Shown: positions 9,033-20,852 of the stretch, piece by piece
How positions within the stretch are numbered: the stretch's first letter is position 1
How the letters are laid out: each line of letters starts with the position of its first letter
Virus record (IMG/VR): IMGVR_UViG_3300028888_000086
DNA from: a virus
Taxonomy: Duplodnaviria > Heunggongvirae > Uroviricota > Caudoviricetes
DNA: 34,059 nucleotides
Strand: one strand, 5' to 3'
Notes under the pieces: generated by a model
What the model was told of the DNA's origin: nothing
Seen by the model: the letters and a program-made list of their open reading frames with translations, nothing else
Database searches by the model: none
Position numbers and translations under genes: made by a program

Positions 9033-9611
9033 TTATGCTTTTATATTTTCGCTAACAAAGATACCAATTCTATATTCGGTATCTCCTTCTTTTTTATAAT
9101 TTACTTTTTGATGATAAATTTTATAATTTTCATTTTCTTTTAATATATTATGAGACTCCCAACCATTAGTTGTAGTTAATTTATTGATTAAGTCTTGTAG
9201 TTTAGATACTTTTGGAGCATATTCTTGAAGAACAGCAGTATCTTCCTTAGTATTCATTTTTTCTTTTAGTTTACCCAACTCTTCTTCTGCTTTTTCTTTA
9301 TTTAAGAAATTATCACCAGAATTATTTAAAGTGTATTGTTCAGGAGTTTCTAAATTAATAACTGTGTTTAAAAACTGATTACCTATTTTTTTACTTGATA
9401 TTTCAGCAATAACAGCAGAATAATCTCCAGTATTAGCAATAGCACTTCTAATATCCTCTAAAGATTTCATAGAAGTTGTTATTCCTAAACTTACAAAAAC
9501 TCCAAGAGGTTTAATAAATGTTTTACCATCAATAGAGTTTATATAGAAAGTTTTAAAATTTTGTTGATAAAAAACTTCAACAATGTCATTTACTTTTTCT
9601 CTAATAATCAT
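9033..9611 (-). CDS. hypothetical protein co-transcribed with the AAA/VWA pair
   Basis: 192 aa; ATGA overlap with the VWA gene stop. Confidence 0.8.
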   Translation of the reverse strand: MIIREKVNDIVEVFYQQNFKTFYINSIDGKTFIKPLGVFVSLGITTSMKSLEDIRSAIANTGDYSAVIAEISSKKIGNQFLNTVINLETPEQYTLNNSGDNFLNKEKAEEELGKLKEKMNTKEDTAVLQEYAPKVSKLQDLINKLTTTNGWESHNILKENENYKIYHQKVNYKKEGDTEYRIGIFVSENIKA

Positions 9612-11632
9612 TTATTACTAAATTTTCTAATCTTCATATGTTTCCAGTTTATCTTATCACTATCAAAATAATTACTATTTCCATAATTAAATCCATAGAG
9701 AAGATATCCTGGCATATTTTCCTCAACTTTATTCCACTCTTCTAAATAATCTTCAAAATCAGATATAACAATTAGTATAGCATCCTGTTTATAATTATCT
9801 CTGAAATATTCAATACCTTTTGCTAATCTTGTTCCTCCACCCATATGAATCTTTGGAACTCCTTTTTTAGGATCAATATTTTTAATATGTTCACCTAAAC
9901 TAGTATTCCAGGTTATAATATCATATTTTAACCCTCTATTAAGTTTTCTCATACATTGTCCAATAGTTTTTAAGATTCTATCAACAAGTCTAGTATCCAT
10001 AGATCCAGAGATATCGATTAAATACACGATCTTAGGCTGATTTGATATAGTTACTTTTCTAGAAACCGTAGGAGCGATAACAGATCTATTTATTCCTTTA
10101 TTGTAAAGTTTCATAAGATCTTTTTTAGTATCAACTTTAATAACACGACTTCTAAAATTTAACATAACCTCTCTTAATGCAATATCAACTGCATCAACAT
10201 CTTTATCGACCTCTCTTATAGCTTCAGAACCTCCATTACTTCCACAACCAATTCCACCTTTACTTCTTATTTTACCTAATTTTCTTAAGTTATCAGCTTC
10301 AACTCTAGAATCAGTATTATGGTCTTGTCTAGTGCTATTTCTTATTCCTTTGTATGGACTTTCTTTCTTTTCTCCACCTCCGTCTTTGCCATCTCCATCA
10401 CGACCATCTTGACCATCAGAATTACTATCTTCTGTTAATCCAAGGTCGCTCATTAAGTTAGATAATCCTTGCATTCCTTGACCAGAACCAATTTGTCCAT
10501 TTGCTATATCTCTTAAAGCATCATTATAACCTTTTTGATAATCACCTTGACCTGCAGAACTTTGAGAACCACCATTTCCACCCAGTTGAGAGCTTCCACT
10601 TCCACTACCTTGACCTGATGATGGTTGACCTCCACTTCCAGGCATATTTCCTTGACCTGGCATTCCCTGTCCTGGCATACCCTGATCATTCTGATTCCCT
10701 TGTCCTTGTTGTGATTGTTCTTGTCCAGATTGTCCCTGTTGGCCCATTTGTTGATTCTGCATACTCTTACCAACTTGCCCATTATTATAGTCTCTCAAAG
10801 CATCATTATAACCTTTTTGATACTCTGGACTCATATTAGCAAATTGATTTAATGCATTCTGAATATCCTGTTGAGTAACCTGGGATGTATCACCATTACC
10901 TCCCATTTGAATATTGACAAGCATTTTTACAAACTTATCTAAATTCTTGATAATCAGCATAAGATATTCTACATAGGTCAAATCATTAGGGAATTCATAT
11001 CTTTCAGGAATCATTAGTTTTATTTTAGATTCCTTCTGCATTTTATCCAATCTATCTTGCAGGTCCTTCTTAAATGCTGGATCTACTGCATGATCTTGTA
11101 AATACTTCAATAACTCTTCATCCGTTTTTGGAAGAGCTGAAGATATATCATGCTCCATTTCTTCAATATCATCTTTACTAAGAACAGAAGAATTAACTTC
11201 CATATCCATAGCAATATTATGAATTTGATGATTAAGATATGGATCATCAATAACCCTTTCAATTAACTTATCGGCAAAATTAATACCACAATTTTTATTA
11301 ATTTCTGCAATAAGATCATCTCTATAGTTATTAAAAACATTACAAATACTAGAATCAAGATCTTCATGTATTCCATCCATATGACCTAAATAAATATGAC
11401 CATACTCATGCATCATGATTCTAAAATCTGTTCTGTCAATTCCAAGTTTACTACATACAATTTTATAAACTATATGACCAGAATCTTTATCTTTATATTT
11501 AAAGCAATACCCCAAATCATTTAATTTGGGGTCATACTTTTCATCAATGTCTAATATTAATAGATTACCAAACCTATTATATGTACTATCAACAAAATTT
11601 TTTATTGCTTCTAGTTCAGATTTTGTTCTCAT
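9608..11632 (-). CDS. metallopeptidase (HExxH) plus G/Q-rich linker plus VWA domain protein (DUF2201-like)
   Basis: MMHEYGHIY and HNIAMDMEVN in the N-terminal domain. MIDAS DISGS, MGGGT and VISDFE in the C-terminal domain. Confidence 0.85.
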   Translation of the reverse strand: MRTKSELEAIKNFVDSTYNRFGNLLILDIDEKYDPKLNDLGYCFKYKDKDSGHIVYKIVCSKLGIDRTDFRIMMHEYGHIYLGHMDGIHEDLDSSICNVFNNYRDDLIAEINKNCGINFADKLIERVIDDPYLNHQIHNIAMDMEVNSSVLSKDDIEEMEHDISSALPKTDEELLKYLQDHAVDPAFKKDLQDRLDKMQKESKIKLMIPERYEFPNDLTYVEYLMLIIKNLDKFVKMLVNIQMGGNGDTSQVTQQDIQNALNQFANMSPEYQKGYNDALRDYNNGQVGKSMQNQQMGQQGQSGQEQSQQGQGNQNDQGMPGQGMPGQGNMPGSGGQPSSGQGSGSGSSQLGGNGGSQSSAGQGDYQKGYNDALRDIANGQIGSGQGMQGLSNLMSDLGLTEDSNSDGQDGRDGDGKDGGGEKKESPYKGIRNSTRQDHNTDSRVEADNLRKLGKIRSKGGIGCGSNGGSEAIREVDKDVDAVDIALREVMLNFRSRVIKVDTKKDLMKLYNKGINRSVIAPTVSRKVTISNQPKIVYLIDISGSMDTRLVDRILKTIGQCMRKLNRGLKYDIITWNTSLGEHIKNIDPKKGVPKIHMGGGTRLAKGIEYFRDNYKQDAILIVISDFEDYLEEWNKVEENMPGYLLYGFNYGNSNYFDSDKINWKHMKIRKFSNK
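10509..10822. repeat. 32-nt direct repeat (31/32 identical) encoding YQKGYNDALRD twice
   Basis: TCTCT(T/C)AAAGCATCATTATAACCTTTTTGATA at 10509-10540 and 10791-10822. Confidence 0.9.
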
Positions 11633-11644
11633 AGTATTTATTTT

Positions 11645-13201
11645 TTATACTCTAATTTCTGGTATTATCTTTGAAACTGCTGGTGAAAAGTTGATTGCAT
11701 ATTTTCTAAACATCTTCAACTTATATTCAACTTGACGAAGTTTAGTCATGGTATCATTTAAATCTTTCTTAATATCAGTTTCATAAGATTTTTCTGGTTT
11801 CTCTATTAAAGATTTTAATTCAGTGATTATATCTTTGACTCTATTCCAAGTGACAATTTTAGCAGCAAAAGCTTCTGGTGTAATATCAAAATCTTTAAAA
11901 ACATCTTTACTTGTACTAGAATCAGAATCTCCAATTTTTACTTCAGGTTTAAACTTCTCAATTAATAAGTTACCAGTTTTAACTAAACAGGTAAAAATTG
12001 GCTTAATCGTTTCTGGATTAATTGGACGTTCAATATTTTCAAGATCTTTATCCTTTATAATTTCATTAACTTTATTAAACAAAGCTTGTAATTCAGGATC
12101 AGTAAAAGCTTTTGTAGTTTTTGACATCTTCTGTAAATAATCTTCATACTCAGAAAGTCTGTCATTATTTAATTTTTCTACATCATTTATAACTTTTATC
12201 ATATATTCTTGAAAATCTTTACCAACCTTTGTTACAACAACATCATCACCGTTAGTTGTTTTCTTTGGATTTCTACTAACACCAACTCCACAAAGACCAT
12301 CAATAACATTTCGATATAGATTACTAGATATTCCTTCTTTTCCAAAACATTGATAAATCGCAATCGTAGCTTCTCTCAGATAACATAAAGTTCTAAAAGT
12401 AATAAATCCATATAACTTTGAATCTTTATCAGTATCCGAATAAATATTTTGTAAATCAGTAACAGCAAGATCGACAGGTTTATCTCCTTGAGTCATTAAA
12501 ATTTTCATTACATCTTTTAACCCTCTTTCAATATACTCTCCTATCATATTATATTTTTTCTCAGGAATATCTTTTTCTTGTTCATCTAATTCCCGCATAT
12601 TCTTTTCTAACTCCGTAAAGTAATTTTTCTTCTCACCCCTCATACTACCCTCAAATTTGTTTAAAAATACATTTAAATCATCTGCAGTAGGAATGATATT
12701 GAAAATCATAAAACGATTCATTACTGGAGGAAGTAAGTTCATAGTATTTGATAAATTTTGAGCATAGTTACCAGCAGATACAATTAACGTATCATCTGGT
12801 ATTTTTTCTGTTTTAACCATTCTCTCAAAAATCAAATGTAATAAAGCAGCTTGTACATATTCATTCGCTGTAGTAATTTCATCTAAGAATAATAAGGTTT
12901 TCTTTCCCTCATTATGATTTCTTATAACTTCCTCAAACCAACTAGGTCTAAGAGGTACTGCTGCCATTTTACGATCATAACTTACATCCTTTGGAGCTAC
13001 ATCATATCCAGTTACTTCTTCTGCAGTAGTTGAATTACCTCTAAGTAATACAACTTCATAACCTCTAACTTTTGCAAATAAATTTACCGTTGAGCTTTTA
13101 CCTGCTCCTGGATTAGATAAGAATAATACCGGAACTCCGCTTTTTTCAGCAATTTTTAACGCACAGAAAATATCTGTATTAATGTTATTTTTTCTTGCCA
13201 T
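11645..13201 (-). CDS. MoxR-like AAA+ ATPase
   Basis: Walker A SNPGAGKSS, Walker B LLFLDEI, sensor AGN and the RF arginine-finger region; adjacent to a VWA partner. Confidence 0.85.
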   Translation of the reverse strand: MARKNNINTDIFCALKIAEKSGVPVLFLSNPGAGKSSTVNLFAKVRGYEVVLLRGNSTTAEEVTGYDVAPKDVSYDRKMAAVPLRPSWFEEVIRNHNEGKKTLLFLDEITTANEYVQAALLHLIFERMVKTEKIPDDTLIVSAGNYAQNLSNTMNLLPPVMNRFMIFNIIPTADDLNVFLNKFEGSMRGEKKNYFTELEKNMRELDEQEKDIPEKKYNMIGEYIERGLKDVMKILMTQGDKPVDLAVTDLQNIYSDTDKDSKLYGFITFRTLCYLREATIAIYQCFGKEGISSNLYRNVIDGLCGVGVSRNPKKTTNGDDVVVTKVGKDFQEYMIKVINDVEKLNNDRLSEYEDYLQKMSKTTKAFTDPELQALFNKVNEIIKDKDLENIERPINPETIKPIFTCLVKTGNLLIEKFKPEVKIGDSDSSTSKDVFKDFDITPEAFAAKIVTWNRVKDIITELKSLIEKPEKSYETDIKKDLNDTMTKLRQVEYKLKMFRKYAINFSPAVSKIIPEIRV

Positions 13202-16200: not shown

Positions 16201-16770
16201 TTAACTCCAATCTTCTAATTTAAGTTTATTTTTGTAAATTTTATTTATTTGTTCTAAATCTCCTTTATAAATCATAATAACAACATCAGCATATTCAGAA
16301 CTATTAGGTTCAATTATATATTGATGATATATAGGTTTCGATGTTTTTTCAGCATTTAAAAATTCATCATAATCTTTTATTATACATAGACGTCTTTTAT
16401 TTTTTACAGCTTCTGGTATTTCTTTTTGCATTTTTTCAATTGGATATCCTTCAAGTGGTATAAATTCTGTTTTTTTATACTCATGTCTTATTGCTCCAAT
16501 TACAAAGTTATATACGGTTTTTATTAATTCAGATACTGGTTTACTATTAAACTCACCATTATCATTGATATTCAAATTAGGCGTATTAACTGAAAATGTA
16601 ATAAGCGCTGTCTTAAAATTGACTTTTTCTATAACAATATCATTAGGTAATTCATCTACTTTTTTTACTAATCCAGATAAATTTGCAAAATAATTATTTA
16701 TTAGTTTTGTATCTAATAACATTGAAAATTTTTTATCAACCGGATTAAAACTTGTTGAAATTACTATCAT
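16201..16770 (-). CDS. hypothetical protein
   Basis: 189-aa ORF downstream of a promoter motif. Confidence 0.8.
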   Translation of the reverse strand: MIVISTSFNPVDKKFSMLLDTKLINNYFANLSGLVKKVDELPNDIVIEKVNFKTALITFSVNTPNLNINDNGEFNSKPVSELIKTVYNFVIGAIRHEYKKTEFIPLEGYPIEKMQKEIPEAVKNKRRLCIIKDYDEFLNAEKTSKPIYHQYIIEPNSSEYADVVIMIYKGDLEQINKIYKNKLKLEDWS

Positions 16771-16800
16771 TTTTATTCAAATTTTTTCGTTATTAAAATT

Positions 16801-16820
16801 CATATATAAGGAAATTAAGA
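16801..16820 (-). promoter_or_regulatory. phage promoter motif copy
   Basis: TCTTAATTTCCTTATATATG, 30 nt before ATG 16770. Confidence 0.6.
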
Positions 16821-16827
16821 CTAGTGT

Positions 16828-16859
16828 AAAGGGGATAAATGGTTTTCTTATCCCCTTTT
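16828..16859. terminator. intrinsic terminator
   Basis: AAAGGGGATAA (16828-16838) / TTATCCCCTTT (16848-16858), an 11-bp stem. Confidence 0.8.
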
Positions 16860-16883
16860 ATCATTATAAATCTTTATGATAAT

Positions 16884-17399
16884 TTAGATAATATTAATCT
16901 GGTTAATACTAGTAGTTATAGAAATCATATTATCATTTTCATCTTTAACAAAAACCACTCCAGTAATTTCTATTGGATTATCTCCAGTAGTTCCAACAGC
17001 ATATAAAACACCGTCTCTTACATATGCTTTTGACATATCACTGCTTGAAAAACAAACTTGATTAACTGAGATATTTGCTATAGAATTACTATTTTCACTA
17101 GTATTTGTAGTAATAACTATAGGATAAAAATCACCAACATTAAGAGTATAAGTAGTAATATTATCACTAACAGTAGGAGTTGTTCTACTAAGTTGAATAC
17201 TTATATCTTCAATTAAAGCGGGATTATAAATACTATAGTCACTTTTTTCATCTAACTGGGAATAAGACTTATCATTGCGTTCTCCAGCTCTTTCTTGTTT
17301 ACGACTATCATTACCTACATCAAAGTTAATATCGTCTTCGGATCTTTTGGTAAATGATTCTGTAATAAACTCATTTTCATTAATTTCATTTTCATTCAT
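16884..17399 (-). CDS. protein with acidic N-terminus and C-terminal Ig-like (Big_2-type) domain
   Basis: TLNVGD...FSSSDMSKAYVRDGVLYAVGTTG resembles the Ig-like 'SSd..vAtV..G.v.av..G' pattern. Confidence 0.6.
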   Translation of the reverse strand: MNENEINENEFITESFTKRSEDDINFDVGNDSRKQERAGERNDKSYSQLDEKSDYSIYNPALIEDISIQLSRTTPTVSDNITTYTLNVGDFYPIVITTNTSENSNSIANISVNQVCFSSSDMSKAYVRDGVLYAVGTTGDNPIEITGVVFVKDENDNMISITTSINQINII

Positions 17400-17491
17400 A
17401 TCATTCGTGTTTAAAATGTTTATAAAATTATAAATTGATTTAATTATTTAAGATTAGTTTGTCCATTAAAACAAAACTAATCTTTTTAATA

Positions 17492-17510
17492 CATATATAA
17501 GAATAATAAA
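17492..17510 (-). promoter_or_regulatory. phage promoter motif copy (core only)
   Basis: TTCTTATATATG upstream of ATG 17399. Confidence 0.5.
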
Positions 17511-17545
17511 CTTTCTGAAGCGCATTTTTATCATTTCAGAAAGCC

Positions 17546-17580
17546 AAAAAAAAAAATAAACTACTACTCTTAGTAATTTA
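17546..17580 (-). terminator. intrinsic terminator closing the approx. 700-nt non-coding unit
   Basis: Minus strand TAAATTACTA-AGAG-TAGTAGTTTA followed by T11. Confidence 0.75.
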
Positions 17581-18265
17581 AATATTGTTATTACTAATTT
17601 CATAAGTTAATTTTTACCTAAAATTTCTCTTTTTAGGATTTTTGTTCAGGATTTAAAACTCAAAAGAATTCCTCTTCAGAATTTTTATTTTATTCTAAAT
17701 AATTAGTACTGTATCCTAATCGTCCCTCCCTGCGTTCTATTACTCTTAAAACTGATAATACAGTATCAGATTAATTTTATAGTTTATCAAGTATACTTGA
17801 CTACACGCTTTGTATGTCCCTATAATATAATTTTATCAATTATATCTCAACATACTAGTCTAAAATCTTTTCGACTTTAGAATTTTAAATTTTTGTTATA
17901 AAAACTTGCTGTTCAGACTAAATGCCCGTAACTAGCTAAGTTTTTTATATCTCTTAATCATTTTATTTTCCGCTTTTGGCCTATCCTTAACACTCCTCAC
18001 GGAAAGGGCTAACAACAACCCTAAACTTGATTATAAAATCAAGGTGTTAAGTCTTGGATATTTTATACTCGCCAAAACGAGTCTGGGTGCATAACTTCCA
18101 GCTTCATTATATAAAGTTCCCTCCAAGCACCTTCAGTATGCTTTATATAACTAAGTATTTTTCACCAAATACATGACAGTAAACGAAAGATGATCCCATA
18201 GGACTAGACTGAAGCTAATCATAAGATCATCTTAAGGTAATTCTCGAAAATAAAAAAATTTTATT
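17550..18265 (-). ncRNA. candidate large, highly structured non-coding RNA (approx. 700 nt)
   Basis: Bounded by promoter motif 18272-18291 and terminator 17546-17580, with no ORF of 60 aa or more. At least 10 helices and several loop-loop complementarities; G.U pairs favour the minus strand. Confidence 0.6.
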
Positions 18266-18271
18266 TCATTA

Positions 18272-18291
18272 CATATATAAGGCTTTTAAGG
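18272..18291 (-). promoter_or_regulatory. phage promoter motif copy
   Basis: CCTTAAAAGCCTTATATATG. Confidence 0.65.
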
Positions 18292-18302
18292 ATTATTAGA
18301 AG

Positions 18303-18498
18303 GAAAAAAAAATAAACCAACCAAATCTTTAAGATAGATTTCATCCAGCGGTGGTAGACTTTTTACTGTCTAGGAACCCTTTCCGCTTTACCATCTTTAT
18401 TGATTTGGTTGGGTAAGGGCGGGACTTTTTTAATTTGGACTGTCCCGCCCATAATACATAACATAATATATATATATAAATGAGCGATTTCTCTTCTC
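18303..18498 (-). ncRNA. candidate approx. 190-nt structured RNA (GC hairpin plus interrupted rod ending in a U tract)
   Basis: GGGCGGGAC/GTCCCGCCC hairpin, then CCAACCAAATC/GATTTGGTTGG, AAGAT/ATCTT, AGCGG/CCGCT and TAGAC/GTCTA nested stems, then T9. Promoter motif at 18500-18520. Confidence 0.55.
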
Positions 18499-18499
18499 T

Positions 18500-18520
18500 C
18501 TATATATAAGGCTTTTAAGG
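18500..18520 (-). promoter_or_regulatory. phage promoter motif copy
   Basis: CCTTAAAAGCCTTATATATAG. Confidence 0.65.
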
Positions 18521-18532
18521 TTTTTGAGACGG

Positions 18533-18567
18533 AAAAAAAGGAGTTTCACCATCACGGCTATACTCCT
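18533..18567 (-). terminator. intrinsic terminator
   Basis: AGGAGT/ACTCCT stem plus T7 on the minus strand. Confidence 0.65.
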
Positions 18568-18604
18568 AAACAATCCTTTAAAATACAAATTATGAACAGA
18601 ATTT

Positions 18605-18624
18605 CTATATATAAGGCTTTGAGG
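18605..18624 (-). promoter_or_regulatory. phage promoter motif copy
   Basis: CCTCAAAGCCTTATATATAG, back-to-back with the plus-strand copy at 18642-18662. Confidence 0.6.
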
Positions 18625-18641
18625 GGCTCTAAATTACATAC

Positions 18642-18662
18642 CATTGAAATTCTTATAATAGA
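18642..18662 (+). promoter_or_regulatory. phage promoter motif copy directly before the rlaP-like start
   Basis: CATTGAAATTCTTATAATAGA, then ATG 18664. Confidence 0.55.
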
Positions 18663-18663
18663 G

Positions 18664-19887
18664 ATGAATAATTTAACATTTGAAGAGATTAGAAAAAATA
18701 ATAATTTATTATTTGAAAGTATACGGGGATCTCATTTATTCGGATTAGACACAGAGACATCAGACGTAGATACATTTGGAATTTTCTGTTGTGAGCCAGA
18801 TTTATTATTAGGAACAGGTAATAATTATGTATCTATGGTTCAATCCGAAAAGAATGATGATTACTGGGATGAAATAGGTAAGTTTGTAAAAGAGCTATGT
18901 AAATCTAATCCAAATGCGTTAGAGGCTTTATTTACACCAGAAAAATATATTAAGTATTTCAATCCAGTATTACAACCTCTTTGGGATATAAGAGATCAAT
19001 TAATTACTAAGGATTGTTTTAGGTCTTTTTCTGGATATGCTGTGATGCAAATAAAGAAAGCAAAGGGATTAGGTAAAGCGATTAATATAGATCCAGACTC
19101 AGTCAAAAGAAGAAAAAATCCATTAGAATTTTGTTGGGTGGCACAGAAGGATGGAGATGGAGATATAAGATTAGATAAATGGTTAAGAAAATGTGGATTA
19201 AAACAAGAACATTGTGGCATAGTTCATCTTACTAATAGTCTTGAAATGTATAACCTTTATTATGATTGGTTTGCTGATAAAGACTTGAGTGTAGAAAGTT
19301 ATGCAAAAATGAGATACGGAGAAATTAATAATCCAGCTAAATATGAAAAAGAATTAATTGAAGGTAAAAAAACTGAATTTATAGGATATAGAGGCTTACT
19401 TGATCCATCAGACCTAGAAACTAGTCAATTAAGGTGTTCTAGTATTAGTAAAGAAGATGCAGAAAGTCCTTTATGTACATTTCAATATAATTATTTAGCA
19501 TTTTCTCAACATTGTGCTGATTATAAAAGATATTGGGATTGGGTTAAAAATAGAAATCCAGAACGTTTTGAATTGAATAAAGGTTATAACTATGATGGAA
19601 AAAATTGTTGTGCCTGTATTCGATTAATGACTATGGCTCGTGAAATGGCTGAAGGTAAAGGTATGCTATTAGATCGTTCAGATATAGATAGAGACTTTTT
19701 ATTAGATATTAAGACACATAAGCTAACATTTGACGAGATTATGAAACAAATGGAATCTATACAAGCTAATATGGAAGTAGCATTTCAAAAATCAACTTTA
19801 CCAGAAAAACCAGATGCTGAACTTCTAGAAAAAATATTAGTTAGTATTAGAAAATCTCACTACGGCCTAAAAATAGATGAGGGCTGA
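18664..19887 (+). CDS. DNA polymerase beta-superfamily nucleotidyltransferase, RlaP-type
   Basis: IRGSHLFGLDTETSDVDTFGIF (GS..DxD), KSNPNALEALF and the C-terminal helical region LPEKPD. ATG 18664 is preferred because the longer start overlaps promoter motifs. Confidence 0.85.
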   Translation: MNNLTFEEIRKNNNLLFESIRGSHLFGLDTETSDVDTFGIFCCEPDLLLGTGNNYVSMVQSEKNDDYWDEIGKFVKELCKSNPNALEALFTPEKYIKYFNPVLQPLWDIRDQLITKDCFRSFSGYAVMQIKKAKGLGKAINIDPDSVKRRKNPLEFCWVAQKDGDGDIRLDKWLRKCGLKQEHCGIVHLTNSLEMYNLYYDWFADKDLSVESYAKMRYGEINNPAKYEKELIEGKKTEFIGYRGLLDPSDLETSQLRCSSISKEDAESPLCTFQYNYLAFSQHCADYKRYWDWVKNRNPERFELNKGYNYDGKNCCACIRLMTMAREMAEGKGMLLDRSDIDRDFLLDIKTHKLTFDEIMKQMESIQANMEVAFQKSTLPEKPDAELLEKILVSIRKSHYGLKIDEG

Positions 19888-20738: not shown

Positions 20739-20810
20739 TGCGGGTTGGAGAAGTGGTATCTCGTTTGGCTCATAACCAAAAGATCGGTGGATCGTAACCA
20801 CCACCCGCTA
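20739..20810 (+). tRNA. tRNA-Met(CAT), initiator-like, with atypical T-loop; CCA not encoded
   Basis: Acceptor TGCGGGT/ACCCGCT with discriminator A, D stem GAGA/TCTC, anticodon arm TTTGG-CTCATAA-CCAAA, T stem GGTGG/CCACC with loop ATCGTAA. Confidence 0.85.
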
Positions 20811-20852
20811 CATTTCGAAACACAAAATTCATATATTTTAAATTATTATACA

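Follow-up and report, generated by a model that had tools for sequence, protein, structure and literature searches.

Large, highly structured non-coding RNAs (ncRNAs) are rare, and two phage-borne classes, ROOL and GOLLD, assemble into RNA-only nanocages of still unknown function. ROOL (rumen-originating, ornate, large RNA) was first found in cow rumen; it is carried by phages and prophages, contains many helices and has no known protein partner or function, env-120 measuring 659 nt (PMC12286853). GOLLD RNAs, often longer than 800 nt, are also borne by phages and prophages, often near tRNA genes, and are made during phage lysis (PMC12286853). In the jumbo phage 201phi2-1, ONT-cappable-seq identified 10 transcription units without a coding sequence (CDS) and 11 small RNAs, 3 intergenic (PMC11512511). 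Here we analyze a 34,059-nt stretch of viral DNA (IMG/VR record IMGVR_UViG_3300028888_000086, Caudoviricetes), referred to below as the window. An earlier note had singled out in it a minus-strand unit (17546-18291, hereafter unit B) as a candidate ornate ncRNA with its own promoter and terminator. Our analysis favors, with a probability of about 0.6, the conclusion that unit B is an independent, lineage-restricted gene for a structured ncRNA of about 715 nt, situated in a variable cassette island beside RNA-repair genes.

Comparison of unit B with known RNA classes

Like ROOL, unit B is large (about 715 versus 659 nt), phage-borne, associated with the rumen or ruminant gut and rich in helices, these being predicted in unit B. 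ROOL is a broad family that often lies by tRNA islands, whereas unit B belongs to one narrow phage lineage and shows covariation in two hairpins only. Furthermore, ROOL is a homo-octameric RNA-only nanocage with conserved kissing loops, whereas unit B is known from sequence alone, with loop-loop complements present. Unit B shares large size and carriage by phages with GOLLD, but GOLLD is found in phages of Lactobacillales and Mycobacterium, and unit B in a Bacteroidota-type jumbo phage. The jumbo phages 201phi2-1 (and phiKZ) contain promoter-to-terminator units without a CDS, which follow the same cassette logic. Yet the 201phi2-1 RNAs are shorter than 250 nt, correspond to mapped transcripts and are mostly fragments of 5'-untranslated regions (5'-UTRs), whereas unit B is about three times longer, highly structured and so far read only in DNA.

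The likeness to ROOL and GOLLD proposed in the earlier note therefore holds for size and phage context, but the covariance models do not match, and membership in ROOL (RF03087) or GOLLD (RF01998) was rejected. With Rfam 15, cmscan at the gathering score found only a tRNA in the whole window, and a search of 17200-18700 with E values up to 10 returned no ROOL, GOLLD, OLE, group I/II intron, tmRNA or RNase P. Six weak Rfam hits (ES173, Pistol, CRISPR-DR52 and others) were chance matches, the partial Pistol hit covering the H4 hairpin only. Group I introns are common in the 'Jug' jumbo phages of the gut (PMC12880540); a group I intron (RF00028) was rejected here, as there was no Rfam hit and unit B lies between a promoter and a terminator, not between gene halves. 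The view that the unit matches no known class thus stands, no Rfam family being found at the gathering score or with E up to 10. As to the tRNA context invoked in the same note, a single tRNA-Met (20739-20811) lies 2.4 kb from unit B on the opposite strand and is not part of a tRNA island.

An insulated unit with exceptional folding potential

Unit B possesses, as had been claimed, its own minus-strand promoter, a motif that recurs in related phages, and a terminator consisting of a hairpin followed by T11 (coordinates in Table 1); both are on the same strand, as expected for a stand-alone ncRNA gene. The copy of the motif ahead of unit B is the strongest of the clade. The motif core, TTATATATGTA, repeats in sense direction before genes on both strands of the window, and a variant ends 13 nt before the tRNA-Met. 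Exact copies of the extended 21-mer CTTAAAAGCCTTATATATGTA are present in 42 stretches from IMG/VR phage contigs of 200-400 kb, and a restricted form of this pattern in 8 metagenome stretches (50 related stretches in all); in the related phages, a protein gene usually starts 70-155 nt downstream. On the minus strand of the window, three tandem copies are found at 18625, 18520 and 18291. Transcription of unit B would presumably begin a few nt past its promoter, at about 18262.

At the other end, no run of T in the window exceeds the T11 stretch in length. Runs of at least 9 T on the transcribed strand fall where units end, and all three on the minus strand precede a promoter, terminator-promoter cassettes delimiting transcription units in this genome. 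The promoter of the downstream gene, which encodes a 171-aa protein, follows 45 nt past T11. Unit B is therefore insulated on both sides, by the terminator of the preceding unit (unit A) on its 5' side and by the separate promoter of the 171-aa gene on its 3' side. The stem of the unit B terminator contains a single G-C pair and is not called by a consensus terminator scan. Inside unit B, on the plus strand and overlapping a palindrome, there is a sigma-70-type match (TTGACT, 18 nt, TATAAT; 11/12; 17797-17826), probably a chance occurrence if the host is a member of the Bacteroidota.

No protein-coding capacity was found. The 1.2-kb gene-free zone around unit B is devoid of open reading frames (ORFs) of at least 60 aa under code 11, code 4, TAG=Q and TAA=Q, which bears out the earlier statement and dismisses recoded stop codons. 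ATG ORFs on the transcribed strand of unit B reach at most 23 aa. None of nine candidate mini-ORFs is present in a 15-billion-protein collection, indicating that no gene caller predicted a protein there. The six read-through frames gave no match in PHROG and nothing above the cut-off in Pfam, and 1,321 ORFs from relatives left no tblastn trace in unit B. A pseudogene was rejected for lack of any trace of protein families or relatives' ORFs in six frames, a match to FAF1 being below its cut-off; unit B thus shows no signal of a decayed gene.

The folding potential of unit B is exceptional for this genome. The minus strand of 725 nt had a minimum free energy (MFE) of -170.1 kcal/mol, with z scores between -4.9 and -5.1 (-5.06 in a second run), versus -118.4 kcal/mol and z scores between -2.7 and -2.9 for the plus strand of the same 725 nt. 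Among 38 windows of 725 nt, taken from both strands of the whole stretch, the minus strand of unit B had both the lowest energy and the lowest z score, the remaining ones ranging from +0.9 to -3.4. Unit B also contains 81 complementary 7-mers, compared with 47 +/- 10 in shuffled sequences. In windows of 150 nt, the signal was confined to 17726-18250, with a peak z of -6.4 at 17801-17950; between 17576 and 17800 such local windows folded no better than chance.

We also came across a coding stretch with a comparable fold. An apparent 820-nt gap in a relative whose RlaP (the protein encoded next to unit B) is 77% identical (L017:3536-4358, minus strand) folds at z = -4.2, yet contains a 37-aa ORF behind a AGGAAAGGAGG box and a longer open frame without ATG, both missed by the gene caller. 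It was therefore discarded as an analogous RNA, and fold z scores alone do not prove an RNA gene.

The helices and loop-loop complements listed in the earlier note could all be found (11/11 perfect Watson-Crick duplexes), including the 9-bp core of H1, the 10-bp core of H2 and the closing helix of the three-way junction. For the helix 17856-61/17915-20, the complementarity is real, but the helix conflicts with others of higher probability and is missing from the centroid. The pseudoknots and loop-loop contacts proposed on the basis of complementarity are conjecture. The same applies to dimerisation through the 14-nt palindrome, the existence of which was confirmed. No second copy of the palindrome was found in the window or in the 79 loci used for comparison (designated by L numbers), so that a recurring operator palindrome was rejected.

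Conservation and covariation in a diverged homologue

A single diverged homologue of unit B was reached: L079, a 976-nt Logan contig found through relatives of the 171-aa gene. It is aligned by blastn to 17869-16920 at 83% and covers 17546-17869 of unit B. The 3' third of unit B appears to be under stronger constraint than the neighboring gene, since the RNA body is 92.8% identical, versus 77.4% for the CDS, and three compensatory changes are present. In Fisher tests, the contrasts of the RNA body with the CDS, its third codon positions and the spacer gave p = 4e-5 to 4e-8 (4e-5 for the spacer, 2e-7 for third positions), and that with codon positions 1+2 gave p = 0.005. A small protein behind the conservation of 17621-17869 was rejected, as each frame is interrupted by stops or shows non-synonymous changes in excess when compared with L079. 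The conserved block stops at the terminator, which has diverged with compensatory changes.

One compensatory change affects the 6-bp hairpin at 17752-17769 (17768/17753, U-A to A-U in L079) and two affect the top stem of the terminator (17596/17571, U-A to C-G; 17594/17573, G-C to A-U), where one wobble change also keeps the pairing. RNAalifold also indicated four wobble-compatible single changes. With the fold computed from the window only, three compensatory changes were reached in 0.3% of permutations (P = 0.003); with column shuffles in RNAalifold, three compensatory pairs had P = 0.025. The absence of broken pairs in the RNAalifold consensus is trivial, as shuffles give the same, and the consensus energy had a z score of -3.9 versus -3.4 for the opposite strand. 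These data support conserved local hairpins and what looks like a working terminator.

Other elements of the 3' domain were less informative. The 3' arm of H9 carries 3 changes in L079, the contig of which begins inside the H9 loop. Every pair of H10 is unchanged, the sole change being in its loop. The palindrome at 17787-17800 is identical in L079, with changed bases flanking it on both sides, but 14 unchanged bases at 7% divergence are expected about 1 time in 3. Comparison with L079 supports conserved pairing in two 3' hairpins, which covary (3 changes), but not the long-range MFE pairs of the 3' part, which are broken there.

We considered the possibility that unit B is a long cis-acting leader, extended by terminator read-through into the operon of the 171-aa gene, or a precursor cut into small RNAs. 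Unit B abuts this operon in the same orientation, its terminator has the single G-C pair and escapes the consensus scan, its 3' domain is a string of separate hairpins, and a 13/14 complement (repeat I8) joins 17826-17839 to the 5'-UTR of the 171-aa gene; in 201phi2-1, most small RNAs derive from 5'-UTRs (PMC11512511). Yet the 171-aa gene is preceded by an exact promoter motif of its own, which is also present in L079, homologues of the gene occur without unit B (as in L026), and the terminator combines the longest T-run of the window with a stem maintained by compensatory changes. Furthermore, the I8 complement consists of A and T only and is not significant, and duplex energies to translation-start regions are ordinary. 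We consider a leader or precursor to be very unlikely.

The interpretation of unit B as a structured ncRNA gene also has to accommodate several observations that weigh against it. L079 covers just the 3' 45% of unit B and not the 5' domain, which holds most of the predicted structure. Of the 16 pairs of the window-only MFE fold touched by substitutions, 9 count as broken in L079; for three of them the partner lies beyond the L079 contig, and most of the others are long-range or belong to the lower part of the terminator stem. The terminator itself makes up one of the two covarying hairpins, and the covariation is strand-neutral; the strand assignment is accordingly based on the orientation of promoter and terminator and on thermodynamics. 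With two mosaic genomes, the 93% block could reflect a recent exchange of cassettes rather than selection. Finally, unit B is missing from this position in L022, whose RlaP is 91% identical, and in more distant relatives.

Table 1 Features of unit B and adjoining sequence. Positions refer to the window. Pair probabilities are ensemble means for the minus strand of unit B; identities are relative to L079.
Feature	Position	Strand	Observation
Unit A, cassette of ~190 nt, no protein	18303-18520	-	own promoter, G+C-rich 9-bp hairpin, 11-bp closing stem, T9
Unit A terminator, stem + T9	18302-18332	-	direct repeats D1, D7, inverted repeat I4, T-run list
Promoter motif CCTTAAAAGCCTTATATATGTA	18270-18291	-	would drive unit B; best match to consensus among three tandem copies
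Putative non-coding transcript, about 715 nt	17546-18265	-	no ORF, promoter + terminator, fold energy
H1, long 5' hairpin, 13 + 7 bp, apical loop GCUUCAGUC	18187-18233	-	predicted, pair probability 0.94-0.95
H2, 11-bp stem closing 24-nt purine-rich loop	18106-18151	-	predicted, pair probability 0.75; 10-bp core perfect
H3 + H4, short hairpins (CUGG/CCAG; ACUCGU/GCGAGU)	18067-18101	-	predicted, pair probabilities 0.75-0.81
Three-way junction: 8-bp closing stem, two 7-bp hairpins, short GUGA-loop arm	17986-18051	-	predicted, pair probabilities 0.94-0.97
H8, long imperfect hairpin, 22 pairs	17897-17949	-	predicted, pair probability 0.90; in strongest local window (-6.4)
H9, 9-bp hairpin, GAAAA loop	17859-17881	-	predicted, pair probability 0.98
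H10, 7-bp stem stacked on 9-bp AU hairpin	17812-17855	-	predicted, pair probabilities 0.94-0.98
Palindrome TCAAGTATACTTGA, 5-6 bp hairpin, UAUA loop	17786-17801	-	perfect 14-nt palindrome at 17787-17800
6-bp hairpin CUGAUA/UAUCAG	17752-17769	-	one compensatory change in L079
Conserved body of 3' domain (RNA body)	17621-17869	-	92.8% identity (18 differences in 249 nt)
Terminator region compared with L079	17546-17620		78.7% identity
Unit B terminator, long AU-rich hairpin, then T11	17546-17615	-	top stem 17590-17597/17570-17577; T11 at 17546-17556
Spacer	17400-17545		78.1% identity
Promoter of downstream 171-aa gene	17490-17503	-	exact motif TTATATATGTA, kept in L079; 3' boundary of unit B
171-aa CDS			77.4% identity; codon positions 84/86/74%; positions 1+2 85%

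Distribution, genomic setting and possible role

Unit B is lineage-restricted, with two phages so far. blastn against 50,697 phage records returned nothing, three exact patterns of unit B (20-29 nt) had no match in IMG/VR, and one 21-nt pattern had none in GTDB genomes. In all 79 loci and the rest of the window, nhmmer recovered only the identical L024, a sequence from a JGI sample with 100% identity to 16661-17952. A look-up of mini-ORFs in the 15-billion-protein collection, aimed at gene-less contigs of relatives, yielded none. Relatives with a 77% identical RlaP have protein genes upstream of RlaP in place of unit B. A syntenic contig of 379,862 bp (GCA_016648615.1 = JAEEGL013338223.1) has a 1.4-kb ORF-free gap beside its homologue of the 171-aa gene.

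The contigs of relatives with a 91-93% identical RlaP end 130-440 nt upstream of this gene. More generally, in contigs from many independent assemblies (L004, L010, L013, L014, L016, L021-L023, L025, L027, L028) the sequence stops 60-700 nt ahead of RlaP or 125-190 nt ahead of the 150-171-aa gene. These ends coincide with the positions of repeated terminator-promoter cassettes. Such repeats probably break de Bruijn graph assemblies, and the cassettes may be recombination hot spots.

These observations bear on the possibility that unit B is transcribed but functionless filler, i.e. a decayed gene cassette or spacer, the similarity with L079 resulting from recent recombination between mosaic phages. 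The restriction of unit B to one lineage, the wholly different region upstream of RlaP in a close relative such as L022 and the breaks of assemblies at cassettes that are natural recombination sites all point in this direction. Yet the six frames contain no trace of protein families or of relatives' ORFs, and a fold energy that is an extreme outlier of the genome is not expected of a decayed gene. The end of the conserved block at a terminator that diverged in a compensatory manner is also more readily explained by selection on pairing than by a recent transfer in one piece. Filler is in our opinion unlikely.

Alternatively, the region might act as DNA: as an operator field, as a packaging site or as a replication origin, the last perhaps primed by the transcript from the promoter, as with T4 oriF/oriG. 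Unit B sits where divergent gene blocks switch orientation, within a 1.2-kb gene-free zone across which the GC skew changes sign; its perfect, conserved 14-bp palindrome is of a type recognized by DNA-binding proteins that act as dimers; a large number of relatives' contigs end near RlaP; and compensatory changes, being strand-neutral, preserve inverted repeats in DNA equally well. Yet the sign of the GC skew merely tracks gene orientation at every switch in the window, the gene-free zone included, and the repeated cassettes account for the contig breaks. The window and the 79 loci contain no other copy of the palindrome, there are no iteron arrays, and only the promoters repeat at least 3 times, the other repeats being weak and in two copies. 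The combination expected of a phage origin (iterons or repeated binding-site arrays, with an AT-rich unwinding element) was not found in unit B. Unit B is also bracketed by a sense promoter and terminator, and its fold is biased toward one strand (-170 vs -118 kcal/mol; z -5.1 vs -2.9). A DNA-level element is thus highly doubtful.

Under the favored interpretation of unit B as a structured ncRNA gene, the unit is presumably transcribed. Transcription would start a few nt past CCTTAAAAGCCTTATATATGTA, run for about 715 nt and stop at the AU-rich hairpin followed by U11. On folding, H1, H2, the three-way junction and the 22-pair hairpin would make up a compact 5' half, followed on the 3' side by a string of short hairpins, the sequence of which would be under purifying selection; the 5' architecture is a prediction of the folding model. 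Made during infection, the RNA might act in trans, its most likely role being that of a stable scaffold or decoy that binds proteins. We infer this role from the lack of antisense targets, the insulation of the unit on both sides, its promoter with the strongest consensus and its location in a zone of RNA-repair genes with variable cassettes. Indeed, none of 46 translation-start regions, nor the tRNA or unit A, stood out as an antisense duplex partner, and an antisense regulator of genes of the window was rejected, the duplex energies to all translation-start regions being ordinary.

Unit A precedes unit B in tandem on the same strand. Both have the same promoter and a stem plus T-run terminator and encode no protein, but they have no sequence similarity and unit A is only about 190 nt long. 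A weak homologue of unit A was found by nhmmer (L074:1030-1254, minus strand; E = 2.5e-8), and in that locus the next promoter drives a gene for a 106-aa protein and not unit B. In related jumbo phages (L039:1213-2023 and some 30 more IMG/VR loci, L029-L066), the identical 21-nt promoter also drives a conserved unit, which comprises a 58-aa membrane mini-ORF with a terminator, about 400 nt without ORF and then a 680-aa protein without Pfam family. This ORF-poor unit of about 800 nt was rejected as a homologue of unit B, as it carries the mini-ORF and shows no similarity.

The window is coding-dense, with a G+C content of about 26%. The right-hand neighbor of unit B is RlaP, an RlaP-type nucleotidyltransferase (PF10127), and the gene-free zone extends from this gene to the 171-aa gene (start 17399, minus strand). 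To the left lie genes for a Pnkp-like metallophosphoesterase, a nucleoside deoxyribosyltransferase-like protein, a MoxR-type ATPase and a VWA protein. Of the last two (9608-13201, minus strand), the MoxR-type protein is an AAA ATPase, and the VWA protein after it has 674 aa, a CoxE-like VWA domain at its C-terminus and an N-terminal part that resembles a DUF2201_N metallopeptidase by language-model features. A partnership of the Ro60/Y-RNA type was rejected, this N-terminus being DUF2201_N peptidase-like and not TROVE.

The RlaP ORF comprises 431 aa here versus about 403 aa in most relatives, and the promoter motif copy at 18604-18625 (minus strand) falls within the called start (18592-18676). 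Given the length in relatives, the true start is probably near 18676, in which case the gene-free zone contains the three tandem minus-strand promoters. Ahead of RlaP lies a leader hairpin some 40 nt long (about 18537-18575, plus strand), which is kept in L021 and L022 (RlaP 91% identical), the sequence beyond it being unrelated to the window in both. L022 has a different G+C-rich self-complementary stretch upstream of RlaP (alignment columns about 300-430).

IMG/VR contigs bearing relatives of RlaP measure 230-400 kb, and the sample labels of the closer relatives are ruminant gut metagenomes. Jug phages have genomes of 360-402 kb, 27-30% G+C and the standard code, with Bacteroides/Phocaeicola as predicted hosts and kin in sheep and cows (PMC12880540). 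Based on contig sizes and sample labels, the source phage fits a Jug-like jumbo phage of ruminant gut Bacteroidota.

With two phages and a homologue that covers it partially, unit B is a good candidate and should not be taken for more. A bolder proposal, which we view as a long shot, is that unit B is the founder of a new class of large ornate RNAs in Jug-like Bacteroidota phages, forming an RNA-only or RNA-scaffolded assembly like ROOL and GOLLD. The palindrome and the complementarity between the H1 and H2 loops would then serve as intermolecular or tertiary contacts, and the unit would belong to a swappable island of ncRNA cassettes by RNA-repair genes (RlaP, Pnkp-like phosphoesterase, RNA ligase) and might serve as a decoy for host defences that target RNA.

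Both human and animal guts harbor abundant Jug-like jumbo phages. The terms non-coding, ncRNA, intergenic and promoter do not appear in the main text of the paper describing Jug phages (PMC12880540). If the interpretation of unit B as an ncRNA gene is correct, unit B would be a new, experimentally tractable large-RNA candidate beside an RNA-repair module, and would suggest that Jug-like phages carry exchangeable non-coding RNA cassettes.

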